The notes under the pieces are model-generated. The model did no database searches. It was not told the DNA's origin and was given only the letters and a program-made list of their open reading frames with translations. A stretch of 64,000 nucleotides of DNA. Origin: Escherichia coli 042. Its GTDB lineage: Bacteria; Pseudomonadota; Gammaproteobacteria; Enterobacterales; Enterobacteriaceae. Both the position numbers and the translations under genes were made by a program. The stretch lies in assembly GCF_000027125.1 (NCBI RefSeq), contig NC_017626.1; one strand, 5' to 3'. Below are positions 3,271-12,200 of the stretch, piece by piece (positions within the stretch are counted from its first letter, which is position 1; each line of letters starts with the position of its first letter).

Positions 3271-6200
3271 TTAATAATACTCTACGCACAAGCCAGAAGA
3301 CTTTCCTGTCCCAAGCTCTGATATACCAGTTTCAGGATTAAATTTCTCGTGTACTCCCATGAGCTGAGTACTTGTCCAATAATCCGTACTGCTAAAAGCG
3401 TTCCCATACGTTTTTAAATTACCATATTCGCCCCACAACGTACCTACTTTTCGCGGTACTACCCCACCGCTTGGCCGCTGCGCTAATTCTAAAGATGACG
3501 GCATTTGACCATAGCTACATGAAGTATTTATGATATCCCAGGTATTACTACTGCTAGCACCTAAACTAGTAAACCATTTTTTAATCTTGAATTTAAATAC
3601 AACATCATTCCCTTTACCATTCTTGGGTTTCCCAGTAATAGTAACTTCACTTCTTATCAGCACAGATAATGTTACTTCTCCATTACTATCAACATTAATT
3701 CCATAAATCCCAGCCGTCCAATTATAATCCGTATTTTTCATATTATGGGTTAGTAACAGCGTGAATTTTGCACCATCAAACCCTGTTTCTGGAAAACCAT
3801 CTGTCGCCCTGAATTTTACACCATTAACACTCAGCGACTCGACTTCCACAAAAGGAAGGATGGTATAGGATGGTTGCCCGTATATACGCCAACCTTTAAT
3901 CTCCATAAATGAAGTTAAATTTTCTCCTTCTTGGTAGGCCATATATGTACGTTCATATATGCCATCACCCACATATCTCCATTTTTCCCCTTCTTTCTTT
4001 TCTACATTTTGTAAGTACACTGCATCATCCAGCAAATCCAGACCGTTATCCACCGGATTTCCAAAATCATCAACTAATAAAGCACTGACAGGTAAATCCG
4101 CCCCTTCCACTACTAAAACTTCTCGTATACGAAGCTGTGAACCAAGCGGACTCACTTCACCTGGTTTGATAGTATAATTGTTTGAATAATTGGCATCGCT
4201 CCAACCAGCCATCTTCAGTTGCGCATTCAAATTCGCTTCCGCAAAATGTGCCATATACTGTCTTTGATATTGCCCATTGCCGTTGTAAACCCAATTATTG
4301 CCCTGGATAGGATCCGCATTCCTGACTTGTACGTTTTCCTCATTAAGCTGAACAACACCATCAGTAATAAAGTTACCCTGGGCATCTTTAAGAACAACGG
4401 TCACCGTTATGCTATCCCCAGCGATATATATCGTTTTGTCCGCGACAATCGTTGATTGAGTTTTTGCCGCTGCACCTGGTTGTATTCCATATAATGAGGA
4501 CTTAATCTCCGCTGCCCATGTTTTTAATTTCAGACTGGCAACCAGATTTTCCTCGGCAACCCATGCTGTCCAGACAATGGTATATTCACCATTATTCTGC
4601 TCGACCCACTGCATAGAATCGGGAGTTGCGCCGCCTACCGCGAAACTATCAATATAAGACTCGATGACTTCTGATGTCAGCCCGAAAGCAGGGTTACCAA
4701 ACTCATCCCGTAACGTTACTGTGACGGTTAATGGCTCCCCGGCGATATATGCCGATTTATCTGTCCTGATAGCAGAATTTGCCTGCACCGGAGCACCGCT
4801 GTGGATGGAATAACTCTCTGATTGTTTACTGCTGCCCCACTCAGACAACTTCAGCGTCGCGTGGTGAGAGTCTCCCGCCATTTGCGCCGACCATGTAGCA
4901 GTATAAACACCGGCGTTTTCAGACCATCCTCCTGAACGTACGGCTCCTTCCACTATTACGTTATCACCAGACAGTAAGGACTCGCCCCCTTCAACCAGGT
5001 TACCGTGCGCGTCTTTCAGCGTCACGGCGACGGTTATGGTCTCGCCAGCGGTGTATGCGTTTTTATCCGTGGCGATAGTTGATGTGGCTTGCGCCGGAGA
5101 ACCGGACTGTATGTCATAGCGATCTGACGTTACGCCATCACTCCACGACTGCAATTGCAGGTTGGCGTGCTGATTGGTACTGGCAATCGTCGCCATTCGG
5201 GTTGTGGTATACACGCCACCTGATTCAACCCAGCTTCCCGTTTCTGACGGGTCGGTGCCAGCCACCGTCAGCACACCATTAGCGGCTAACTGTGAAGCTG
5301 CACCGGTTACCAGATTATCGAACGCATCCCGGAGCGTTACCGTGATGGTGATTGTCTCTCCAACCGTATAGTTCGACTTATTTGTTTCAACGGTTGAAGT
5401 GAGCTGCGATGCATCACCCGGTACAAAGGTGACGTTCTGGCTCTGGCTGCTGTTGTTGATGCTGGCGGTGACCACACTGGTTCCGGCGGTCTGGCTGGTG
5501 ACAGAGATTTCCACCGTGCCATCCGGCTGAGTGGTCACCGTCGGGGCAGTCGTTGCGCCGTTGCCTGCCATCACGCTGACCGTCTGCCCGGCAAGCGCAT
5601 TACCGTTAGCATCAGTGACCTTCACCTGCAGCGTATTCGCCGTCGCGCCGTCAGCCACTGAGCCGTCCTTAATGACCACCAGATCCGCGATCTGCGCCGT
5701 TCTGACATCGGCGATAAACGTCACATCCCGGCTCTGGCTGCTGCTGTTGATGCTGGCGGTGACCACACTGATTCCTGCCGTCTGGCTGGTGACACTGATC
5801 TCCACCGTCCCGTCTGGCCCTGTGATGACCGTCGGGGCAGTCGTTGCGCCGTTGCCTCCCAACACGCTCACCGTCTGCCCGGCAAGCGTATTACCGAACG
5901 CATCGGTCACCCTCGCCCGCAGCGTGTTCGCCGTCGAACCGTCCGCCTCTGAACCATCCTTAATGACCACCAGATCCGCGATCTGCGCCGTCCTGACATC
6001 GGCGATAAATGTCACATCCCGGCTCTGACTGCTGCTGTTGATGGTTGCGGTGACTGTACTGATCCCCGCCGTCTGGCTGGTGACAGAGATCTCCACCGTA
6101 CCGTCCGGCCCTGTGATGACCGTCGGAGACACCGTTGCGCCGTTGTCCGCCAACACGCTCACCGTCTGCCCGGCAAGCGCATTACCGAATGCATCGGTTA

Positions 6201-9200: not shown

Positions 9201-12200
9201 CGGCGATAAATGTGACATCCCCGCTCTGACTGCTGCTGTTAATGCTGGCGGTGACCGCACTGGTGCCCGCCATCTGGCTGGTGACAGAGATCTCCACCGT
9301 GCCGTCCGGCTGTGTGGTGACCGTCGGAGCAGTCGTGGCACCGTTGCCTGCCAACACGCTGACCGTCTGCCCGGCAAGCGCATTACCGAACGCGTCGGTC
9401 ACCCTCACCCGCAGCGTGTTCGCCGTCGCACCGTCTGCCACCGCGTTATCCTGGCTAACGACCAGCTCCGCTATCTTCGCCGTCCTGACATCAGCGATAA
9501 ATGTCACGTTCTGGCTCAGGGTGCTGTTGTTGATGCTGACGGTGACCGCACTGATTCCCGCCGTCTGGCTGGTGACAGAGATCTCCACCGTACCGTCCGG
9601 CCCTGTGATGACCGTCGGAGACACCGTTGCGCCGTTGTCCGCCAACACGCTCACCGTCTGCCCGGCAAGCGCATTACCAAATGCATCGGTTACCCTCGCA
9701 CGCAGCGTATTCGCCGTCGCGCCGTCTGCCACTGAGCCGTCCTTAATAACCACCAGGTCCGCTATCTTCGCCGTCCTGACATCGGCGACAAACGTCACGT
9801 TCTGGCTCAGGCTGCTGTTGTTGATGCTGGCAGTGACTGTACTGACTCCCGCCGTCTGACTGGTGACTGAGATCTCCACCGTACCGTCCGGCTGCGTGGT
9901 GACCGTCGGGGCAACCGTTGCACCGTTGCCTGCCATCACGCTGACCATCTGCCCTGCAAGCGTATTACCGAACGCATCGGTCACCCTCGCCCGCAGCGTG
10001 TTCGCCGTCGAACCGTCTGCCACCGCGTTATCCTGGCTAACGACCAGATCCGCTATCTTCGCCGTCCTGACATCCGCGACAAACGTCACGTTCCGGCTCT
10101 GGCTGCTGCTGTTAATGCTGGCAGTGACCGCACTGGTGCCCGCCGTCTGGCTGGTGACAGAGATCTCCACCGTGCCGTCCGGCTGCGTGGTGACCGTCGG
10201 GAAAACCGTTGCACCGTTGTCCGCCAACACGCTGACCGTCTGCCCATTCAGCGCATTCCCGAACGCATCGGTGACCCTCACCCGCAGCGTGTTCGCCGTC
10301 GCACCGTCCGCCTCTGAACCGTCCTTAATGACCACCAGATCAGCGATCTTCGCCGTCCTGACATCGGCGATAAACGTCACGTTCTGACTCTGACTGCTGC
10401 TGTTGATGCTGGCAGTGACTGCACTGATTCCTGCCGTCTGGCTGGTGACAGAGATCTCCGCCGTCCCGTCCGGCTCGGTGATCACCGTCGGGGCAGTCGT
10501 TGCGCCGTTGTCCGCCAACACGCTGACCGTCTGCCCGGCAAGCGCATTACCGAATGCATCGGTTACCCTCGCACGCAGCGTGTTCGCCGTCGAACCGTCC
10601 GCCTCTGAACCATCCTTAATGACTACCAGATCAGCGATCTTCGCCGTCCTGACATCCGCAATAAATGTCACATCCCGGCTCTGACTGCTGCTGTTGATGG
10701 TTGCGGTGACTGTACTGATCCCCGCCGTCTGGCTGGTGACAGAGATCTCCACCGTACCGTCCGGCCCTGTGATGACCGTCGGAGCGACCGTTGCACCGTT
10801 GTCCGCCATCACGCTGACCGTCTGTCCGGCAAGCGCATTGCCGAACGCATCGGTCACCCTCGCCCGCAGCGTGTTCGCCGTCGAACCGTCCGCCTCTGAA
10901 CCATCCTTAATGACCACCAGATCCGCGATCTGCGCCGTGCTGGCATCGGCGATAAATGTCACATCCCGGCTCTGACTGCTGCTGTTGATGGTTACGGTGA
11001 CTGTACTGGCTCCGGCGGTCTGACTGGTGACACTGATCTCCGCCGTGCCGTCCGGCCCTGTGATGGCAGTCGGAGCGACCGTTGCACCGTTGTCCGCCAT
11101 CACGCTGACCGTCTGCCCGGCAAGCGTATTACCGAACGCATCGGTGACCTTCACCCGCAGCGTGTTCGCCGTCGAACCGTCCGCCTCTGAACCATCCTTA
11201 ATGACCACCAGCTCCGCGACCTGCGCCGTGCTAACATCAGCAACAAAGTTCACCGTTTTACTATCGCTGCTTTGATTGATCTTAGCCTCAACAGTGCTGG
11301 CATCCGCTACGGTACTGCTCAGATCAACCTCTGCCATGCCATGCGCATCCGTCCTGATATCTGCGCTCTGCCCTGCATTGGCAAATACAGCCGCCCCCTT
11401 CGTCACCGTAAAGGTGACGGTCTGCTCCGGCAGCACATTGCCAAACTGATCTTCCACCCGGACATTCACCGTATGTCGATCGCTGCCATTCGCCAGCACA
11501 TCCGGGTTACCCGTTGTCACTTGCATCGCGACAATTTGTGCGCTGGCGGCATCGCCACTAATACTGTAATCATTTGAAGTCAGAGCGTTCGCCCAGCCGG
11601 ACATCTGTAGCTGTGCTTTTAAACCGGTGCCAGGGAGTAAGGCGGTATACGTTGCGGTATAAATTCCTTTTTGATCTTCATTCCAGGCGATGCTTTCCGC
11701 TTTTGTATTTGGCAGCTGGATAGCCAGGTTGATAGCGTCTCGTTGCCCCCCGACCAGGTTTTCATAGCTATCCTTGAGTGTTACCGTAACTTTTATCGCG
11801 CCGCCCGCGGTGTAGGTCGTTTTGTCGGTAACGATGGAGGAATAAGCCAACACAGCTCCGCTTTCGCGGATGGCATACGCATCGGATTGCTGCGCGCTAC
11901 TCCATGTCGATAGTTTCAGCGTGGCGTAATGGCGATCGCCAGCAATCTTCGCGGTTCGGGTGGTGGTGTAAACGCCATCAGACTCTTCGCTCCAGTTACC
12001 CGTTTCATTTTTATCTGTACCGCTCACCTCGACCACACCGCTACCCGCCAGCAGCGAAGCCATCCCTTTCACCAGGTTTTTCTGCTCATCCATAAGGGTA
12101 ACTGACACTTTTATCTTGCCACCCGCGGTGTATGACACATCGTCTGTCTTGATGGTGGAGGTCAGCTGAGAGATATCGCCAGTAATAAAGCTCACTTCCA

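Follow-up and report, generated by a model that had tools for sequence, protein, structure and literature searches.

The window analysed here, a 64,000-nucleotide stretch of Escherichia coli 042 (assembly GCF_000027125.1, contig NC_017626.1), carries on its minus strand an intact gene for the inverse autotransporter adhesin IatC, also named Air or EaeX, whose central stalk is encoded by 20 tandem units of 291 bp. We proposed, with a probability of about 85%, that this array is the variable Big_1 stalk of IatC/Air/EaeX, that its old units have been shuffled by recombination, and that the number of units is stable within clones. The gene, its stalk of Big repeats and the variable repeat number have already been published (PMC7058095 in 2020; PMC6714894), and the general class was established as Periscope Proteins in 2021 (PMC8201768). 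The additions made here are incremental: the copy-number range in complete genomes, exact recombination junctions, shuffling of units without homogenisation, and collapsed database entries. Biologically, IatC is a textbook type of variable-length adhesin stalk, and the practical value of the results lies elsewhere.

The adhesin gene and its tandem stalk

The gene and its parts, in window coordinates and in amino acids (aa) of the protein, are as follows.

3271 to 14691, minus strand: iatC / air / eaeX, inverse autotransporter (type Ve) adhesin of 3806 aa, intact open reading frame (ORF; from the ORF list and translation)
11242 to 14691, minus strand: non-array N-terminal 1150 aa, with leader and putative LysM-like region, IAT_beta barrel, then divergent Big_1/Invasin_D3 domains (barrel and Big_1/Invasin_D3 from Pfam)
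13423 to 14250, minus strand: IAT_beta barrel, aa 148-423 (Pfam PF11924)
aa 537-1150, minus strand: divergent Big_1/Invasin_D3 domains of the N-terminal region (Pfam)
5422 to 11241, minus strand: array of 20 tandem 291-bp units, aa 1151-3090, register ADVRTA...VTFI (Tandem Repeats Finder, motif spacing, identity matrix, Pfam, AlphaFold2)
3274 to 5421, minus strand: C-terminal 716 aa, with about five divergent Invasin_D3-like domains, Invasin_D4 and a tip domain (Pfam)
3628 to 3831, minus strand: Invasin_D4 domain near the C-terminus (Pfam)

Lying in the selC-B/eip island, the gene encodes a known adhesin of E. coli, the inverse autotransporter IatC/Air/EaeX. Its N-terminus matched NCBIfam NF040978, the IatC N-terminal equivalog domain, over residues 1-1065 of 1065 with 3127.7 bits at a cutoff of 2400, and Pfam found the IAT_beta barrel (PF11924, E=1.8e-108) N-terminal to a passenger with Big_1 and Invasin_D3 matches and with Invasin_D4 near the C-terminus. 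Of 5426 complete E. coli genomes, 753 matched the N-terminal 3.4 kb, with identities of up to 99.4%, and the gene is annotated there as iatC or air (EaeX/Air). Compared with other E. coli alleles, the N-terminal non-array region is 98-99.4% identical, and the C-terminal region shows 97-100% aa identity in most alleles. On the chromosome it neighbours eilA and the eip genes within the interval from nepI to yicS (the selC-B island); the gene order nepI-iatC-eilA-sipD-like was found in 754 of the 5426 genomes, and loci annotated as air, eilA, IpaD/SipD-family and nepI are collinear with the window over 22 kb. Mutants of enteroaggregative E. coli (EAEC) 042 in air/eaeX show reduced adherence and biofilm formation, with the gene under EilA control (summarised in PMC7058095 and PMC11068852), and IatC of SMS-3-5 is surface-exposed and promotes biofilm upon overexpression (PMC6714894). 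The naming of the gene in RefSeq is inconsistent, the same locus gene being called air, iatC or left unnamed ("EaeX/Air"), and occasionally gene air is paired with product IatC. C-terminal variants were also observed: the last ~120 residues in strain F9792 are only ~38% identical to those of the window, and IatC of strain MINF_7C is ~90 residues shorter at the C-terminus.

Tandem Repeats Finder (TRF) reported one array at 5439-11238, with a period of 291, 19.9 copies, 0% indels and a score of 7583. In the domain register this is exactly 20 x 291 bp (97 codons), in frame and free of indels, and the unit-end motif V-T/N-F-I/V recurs twenty times at an exact 97-residue spacing. The 291-bp stretches flanking the array are only 27-38% identical to the units, and the edges of the array are therefore sharp. 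These results confirmed the claim of an earlier reading, made from the sequence alone (hereafter the sequence-only reading), that an adhesin gene holds twenty tandem 291-bp repeats. Chance periodicity was ruled out by the TRF score together with the 20 in-frame, domain-sized units. On the plus strand, five long ORFs of 165-304 aa lie antisense to the array, at 5531-6028, 7490-8404, 8657-9229, 9242-9859 and 9863-10387; they are most likely a by-product of a repeated stop-free antisense frame and not genes.

The units had also been taken for immunoglobulin-like (Ig-like) domains, and sequence and structure comparisons agreed. Unit 20 matched Big_1 in Pfam (E=8.6e-20), and two adjacent units matched invasin 1CWV by sequence (E=7e-15). 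When a pair of neighbouring units (a di-unit) was modelled with AlphaFold2, the predicted local distance difference test score (pLDDT) was 95.7 and the predicted template modelling score (pTM) 0.80; the model shows seven strands per unit, the last of which enters the next domain without a linker. The closest solved structures in Foldseek were intimin D0-D1 (6TPL), invasin (1CWV) and InvD (5LDY, template modelling score 0.70 over both domains). One unit is one Big_1 Ig-like domain, and the array is the central stalk between the barrel and proximal domains on one side and the C-terminal tip on the other. In the arrangement we proposed, the barrel would anchor the protein in the outer membrane, and the passenger would form a chain of about 30 Ig-like domains, 20 of them repeat units, followed by the tip. 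The array may fold as a rod of ~3.5-4 nm per domain, a value taken by analogy with invasin, the five domains of which reportedly span ~18 nm in the 1CWV structure, and the number of units would then set the reach of the tip from the cell surface. By this analogy, 4-25 units would give roughly 15-95 nm of extra reach, which would matter for passing the O-antigen and capsule.

Divergence and shuffling of the units

The pairwise matrix of the 20 units gave a mean DNA identity of 85.5% (range 79.7-98.6%) and a mean protein identity of 82.5% (range 71-98%). Neighbouring units are 17-49 nt apart (mean ~38), with 77-94% aa identity, and 123 of the 291 nucleotide columns and 48 of the 97 amino-acid columns are variable across the units. 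Thus, the matrix upheld the array itself but not the near-identity ascribed to it, according to which neighbours would differ by only a few nucleotides. The weaker statement, that the units are more alike than independently evolving Ig-like domains, held, as the units share ~82% aa identity whereas the non-repeat Big_1 domains that come before the array in this protein share only ~30% identity with the unit. Close pairs are limited to units 8-9 versus 11-12 (99% and 97%), which are joined by a tract of ~540 nt with only 4 mismatches, and to units 15-17 (94%). About half of the array's 31-mers occur more than once, as do 668 of its 127-mers, and a diagonal scan located the two longest exact internal repeats.

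8679 to 9048, minus strand: longest exact internal repeat, 370 nt, second copy at 7806-8175, offset by three units (units 8-9 versus 11-12)
6841 to 7056, minus strand: second-longest exact internal repeat, 216 nt, second copy at 6550-6765 (unit 15 versus 16)

The sequence-only reading had attributed the likeness of the units to ongoing concerted evolution through unequal recombination. In the form considered here, frequent unequal crossing-over and gene conversion would keep the units nearly identical and make copy number hypermutable on short timescales. The ~540-nt tract and the 216-nt exact stretch described above, a slight excess of similarity between neighbours and the unequal-recombination junctions between related alleles (below) are in line with it, but the divergence of the units is not. 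The mean distance of the window units was 42.2 nt within the array and 43.9 nt to other arrays, and eight other arrays behaved alike; units were thus no closer within an array than between diverged alleles, and, with no sign of homogenisation, "concerted evolution" in the strict sense does not describe the array. Among the window units, nonsynonymous divergence (dN) was 0.106 and synonymous divergence (dS) 0.359 (ratio 0.29), so that dS among units is ~8 times the divergence of the gene flanks between alleles (0.02-0.06). Compared with a 20-unit allele of another lineage, the gene flanks are 98-99% identical, whereas the array reaches 86% on the diagonal, and none of its units finds a counterpart above 94%. 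In addition, the same 20-unit locus recurs in 60 listed genomes of one clone, and the repeat number is reported to be conserved within sequence type (ST) 69 (PMC7058095). Taken together, the identity matrix, dS and the within- and between-array distances largely refuted ongoing concerted evolution, which we regard as highly improbable.

Within the 291-nt alignment of the window units, 61% of the informative site pairs carry all four gametes, and the minimum number of recombination events (Rm) is 32. In each unrelated array, 76-87% of the columns that vary in the window are variable as well, nearly always between the same two bases, and 197 distinct units were found among ~20 alleles. These results showed that the units are old paralogues, each a mosaic drawn from a pool of mostly two-state polymorphisms that is common to unrelated alleles. 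High identity in an array does not require homogenisation, as this example shows; in it, recombination shuffles a pool of old polymorphisms instead.

The same shuffling was observed at the level of whole units. A map of unit types, with units clustered at <=3 differences, showed that the alleles are mosaics of unit blocks common to several alleles, often at shifted positions. In particular, window units 7-20 and the whole C-terminus correspond to units 12-25 and the C-terminus of the 25-unit allele of strain CB6837, with 1 single-nucleotide polymorphism (SNP) in ~6.2 kb (0-1 differences in each unit; C-terminus 100%), whereas the N-terminal 3.45 kb is only 98.7% identical. The transition falls in one unit.

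9496 to 9786, minus strand: unit 6, inter-allelic breakpoint, with 7 mismatches to CB6837 unit 11, all at unit nt 19-78

From nt 79 of unit 6 (window 9708) to the stop codon, the window allele is 1 SNP apart from CB6837 units 11-25 and C-terminus. Since the match to CB6837 holds only downstream of this point, we concluded that the window allele is an inter-allelic recombinant with a breakpoint near window 9708. As a donor of units 1-5, nothing above 91.6% was found in the 5426 complete genomes. Other related alleles show junctions in register, one with a 9-unit and one with a 2-unit difference. Without nine of its units, the 25-unit allele is the same as the 16-unit allele, the crossover lying inside a 90-nt stretch identical in both, at a unit boundary. 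The last unit of the 14-unit allele is a hybrid, with nt 1-274 from one unit and the final 17 nt from a second.

Judged from their sequences, the three exact junctions are supported as the expected products of homologous recombination between misaligned units. With exact stretches of 80-370 nt in common, the units offer a substrate for homologous recombination, which is probably RecA-dependent. Whole units have been gained or lost in frame by crossing-over between misaligned units, and unit blocks have reached new positions in the array by crossing-over between alleles of different E. coli lineages. Of the former proposal of concerted evolution through unequal recombination, the unequal recombination therefore survived, as seen in the exact junctions, but the homogenisation did not, given the distances and dS above.

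The diversity of the units might alternatively be kept by selection, either for antigenic diversification of the exposed stalk or for avoiding the misfolding of identical neighbours. Several features are in keeping with this: protein identity is lower than DNA identity, dN/dS is higher in the units (0.29-0.36) than in the gene flanks (0.09-0.22), the same polymorphisms persist across unrelated alleles and stay unfixed despite abundant shuffling, and distinct units are numerous among the alleles. However, a sliding scan of the unit for positive selection, by the ratio of nonsynonymous to synonymous polymorphism (pN/pS), found no 9-codon window above 0.52; the variable residues are spread over all strands and loops without forming a patch, and relaxed constraint on a spacer domain accounts for the higher dN/dS just as well. 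Selection for dissimilar neighbours was rejected, as the weak trend runs in the opposite direction (41.7 versus 43.3 nt), neighbours being slightly more, not less, alike than in random order. From these ratios, selection on the units is purifying but relaxed, and we consider selection for diversity unlikely. A broader form of this explanation seems to us somewhat less likely again, namely that the stalk is a combinatorial mosaic system in which an ancient pool of ~100 two-state polymorphisms is reshuffled among units and alleles, never homogenised, and kept by selection for heterogeneity. If that were true, the heterogeneity would serve antigenic or phage-evasion diversity of the exposed stalk, or folding fidelity; each E. 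coli lineage would have a near-unique stalk without positional orthology; and the repeats would evolve in a way that is neither concerted evolution nor simple divergence.

An origin of the unit in E. albertii was also considered and rejected, because the homologues in that species have no copy of the 97-aa unit. Those homologues (P0088-P0120 in our protein set) vary in length in 103-aa steps (1660, 1763, 1866 and 1969 aa), some of them on contigs of 4.5-4.9 Mb, which suggests a separate copy-number variation of a different domain type.

Copy number among lineages and collapse in assemblies

To compare copy number, 23 loci from complete genomes were fetched and their units counted by a consensus scan. 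Counts were taken from this direct scan and not from BLAST spans, as the spans for the whole gene and for the gene plus eilA were inconsistent, pieces that repeated the query not having been joined. The 20 loci with intact genes have 4, 8, 11, 11, 14, 15, 15, 16, 16, 16, 17, 17, 18, 19, 19, 19, 20, 20, 22 and 25 units. In every array the first unit starts at gene nucleotide 3450, and the spacing is 291 nt apart from one 294-nt unit. That unit, in strain JNEC-KY178, has an extra Ser codon in a SINNSSS stretch and is the only departure from the 291-nt period among the intact alleles. A synthetic one-unit query identified 22 further genomes with spans equivalent to ~2-5 units. The remaining 3 of the 23 loci are frameshifted or broken; in ETEC4071, MFDS1019527 and NCTC9112, iatC is frameshifted or split into two coding sequences. 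Either iatC is decaying in some lineages, or those assemblies contain indel errors. In a pig lineage of enterotoxigenic E. coli, iatC keeps only ~2 units, and an insertion sequence IS1 lies nearby.

For a 22-kb query, the 60 best matches are collinear without exception, share the 20-unit length and hardly differ in bit score. These genomes appear to belong to one clone, probably ST405; several are assemblies of a single strain, and some seem to be laboratory derivatives. Among these 60 listed genomes of one clone, no copy-number difference between very close relatives was found. Identical protein accessions also recur in unrelated isolates (three pairs of loci). These results showed that lineages carry ~2-25 units and that each clone keeps its number. 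The expectation that such arrays change copy number readily was thus borne out between strains, which differ by exact 291-bp steps, but not within the clone, where more than 60 genomes all have 20 units. The number of Big repeats in EaeX has been reported to vary between strains (PMC7058095), whereas the paper naming IatC stated that there was no evidence for a variable tandem-repeat number while giving a size range of 2459-2965 aa (PMC6714894). Both the sampled complete genomes and that paper's own size range contradict its statement, and complete genomes settle the conflict between the papers in favor of variation.

As had been anticipated for short reads, this array is often collapsed or broken in public assemblies. 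Among the 87 best relatives of the N-terminus in the public protein collection, at least 31 are apparently complete proteins of 1959-1964 aa that consist of the N-terminus, one unit and the C-terminus (for example P0002, P0004, P0012 and P0017), and dozens more are partial proteins ending inside the array. No protein listed there exceeded 2011 aa, so that full-length alleles were absent. For many of these entries, an allele known from a complete genome accounts exactly for the single unit as a chimera of its first and last units, and for one allele the chimera breakpoint lies at residue 39, 62 or 80 in different collapsed entries. By contrast, a one-unit allele was found in 0 of 752 complete genomes with the gene. 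The chimeric single units and their absence from those genomes indicated that the one-unit entries are collapse artefacts. Some of them bear the source name "inverse autotransporter adhesin IatC" or "adhesin". In YrIlm of Yersinia ruckeri, repeat numbers were likewise much lower in short-read than in PacBio assemblies (PMC6868369). The consequences are practical: many IatC entries labelled or accepted as complete hold a single chimeric unit, and screens for virulence genes that score air/eaeX by length or by reference coverage will be misled by the array.

The count of 20 in the window could itself be an assembly artefact, the array having been collapsed or mis-joined. The non-unique k-mers, exact repeats of up to 370 nt and the frequent collapse or breakage of the gene in public assemblies make such errors conceivable; units 1-5, with their best match at 91.6%, have no cross-check in the 5426 complete genomes, and the transition in unit 6 might, in principle, stem from a mis-join. 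On the other hand, all 20 units are read in one uninterrupted frame, an independent complete assembly has the same units 7-20 and C-terminus apart from the 1 SNP, and the window is a contiguous 64-kb stretch. The N-terminal 3.45 kb also differs from that assembly, as expected of a genuine recombinant and not of a mis-join of one genome's reads, and arrays of 19-25 units are normal in long-read genomes. The intact frame, the agreement of units 7-20 and the genuinely different N-terminus argue that the count of 20 is right, and an artefact appears very unlikely.

Several points weigh against the reading of old, shuffled units whose number is stable within clones. Recurrent mutation at a few sites could have raised the four-gamete signal. 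Neighbouring units are slightly closer than in random order (permutation P<0.001 for the difference given above), which indicates that some local duplication or conversion acts, as the sequence-only reading proposed. The copy-number range and the stability within clones come from a sample of 23 loci read unit by unit and not from a census. The predicted rod geometry is based on a two-domain model and on the analogy with invasin. Finally, LysM and C-type lectin-like domains have been described in IatC/EaeX by means of InterPro and ScanProsite (PMC6714894, PMC7058095), but neither a LysM domain nor a C-type lectin-like tip was reported by Pfam at E<=10.

The genes on either side of iatC are as follows.

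1522 to 3219, plus strand: eilA, HilA-family regulator, convergent with iatC (ORF, annotation of collinear loci, literature)
14893 to 16125, minus strand: nepI, backbone gene bordering the island 5' of iatC (ORF, annotation of collinear loci)

An ORF at window 138-1319 on the plus strand lies where the eip cluster has its IpaD/SipD-family needle-tip gene; this gene is 1350 nt long in collinear loci, and its start precedes the window, so that it is cut by the window edge. Elsewhere in the window, Rfam matches above gathering score were istR (31552-31681, minus strand), the ROSE_2 thermoregulator (46359-46431, minus strand), the small RNA ES036 (56563-56605, plus strand) and AsdA, antisense to dnaA (62082-62162, plus strand), all of which are ordinary E. 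coli backbone content.

Comparison with known systems

The window gene is the same gene as Air/EaeX/IatC (air of EAEC 042; EcSMS35_4024 of SMS-3-5), in the same nepI-iatC-eilA-eip locus, with the same 97-aa Big_1 array, which begins at the same codon, and with the highly similar N-terminus described above. The alleles differ in their arrays: SMS-3-5-type alleles have 11 units (2934 aa) compared with 20 in the window allele, the units 1-5 of which set it apart from the other IatC alleles of the 5426 complete genomes. Invasin of Yersinia pseudotuberculosis and intimin of enteropathogenic and enterohaemorrhagic E. coli share the IAT_beta secretion type and the Big_1/Invasin_D3 fold; however, they have 4-5 extracellular domains of low mutual identity without a long array of similar units, and the NCBIfam intimin model scored the window protein at 412 bits against a cutoff of 1400.

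YrIlm is closer in architecture, being an inverse autotransporter with tandem, highly similar Ig-like domains and a C-type lectin-like cap (PMC6868369). Its repeats are described as identical, whereas the IatC units are ~85% identical and mosaic, and the NCBIfam YrIlm N-terminal model gave 409 bits against a cutoff of 750, which places the window protein outside that family.

In Periscope Proteins (Sgo_0707/SHIRT, SasG, Rib), the stalk of a surface protein is formed by tandem folded domains in strain-variable number, which was proposed to alter the reach of a distal binding domain; the class is defined by repeats of >50 aa with >=80% identity and a variable number (PMC8201768). IatC is not named in the main text of that paper. 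Its 97-aa units, with a mean protein identity of 82.5%, exceed the identity threshold on the mean but are borderline (range 71-98%), and their number varies from 4 to 25 in intact genes. The model cases of the class are mostly Gram-positive and LPXTG-anchored, with 82-100% identity between adjacent repeats; compared with these, the adjacent units of IatC lie at the low end (77-94% aa), the protein has a beta-barrel anchor, and its number of units is stable within clones.

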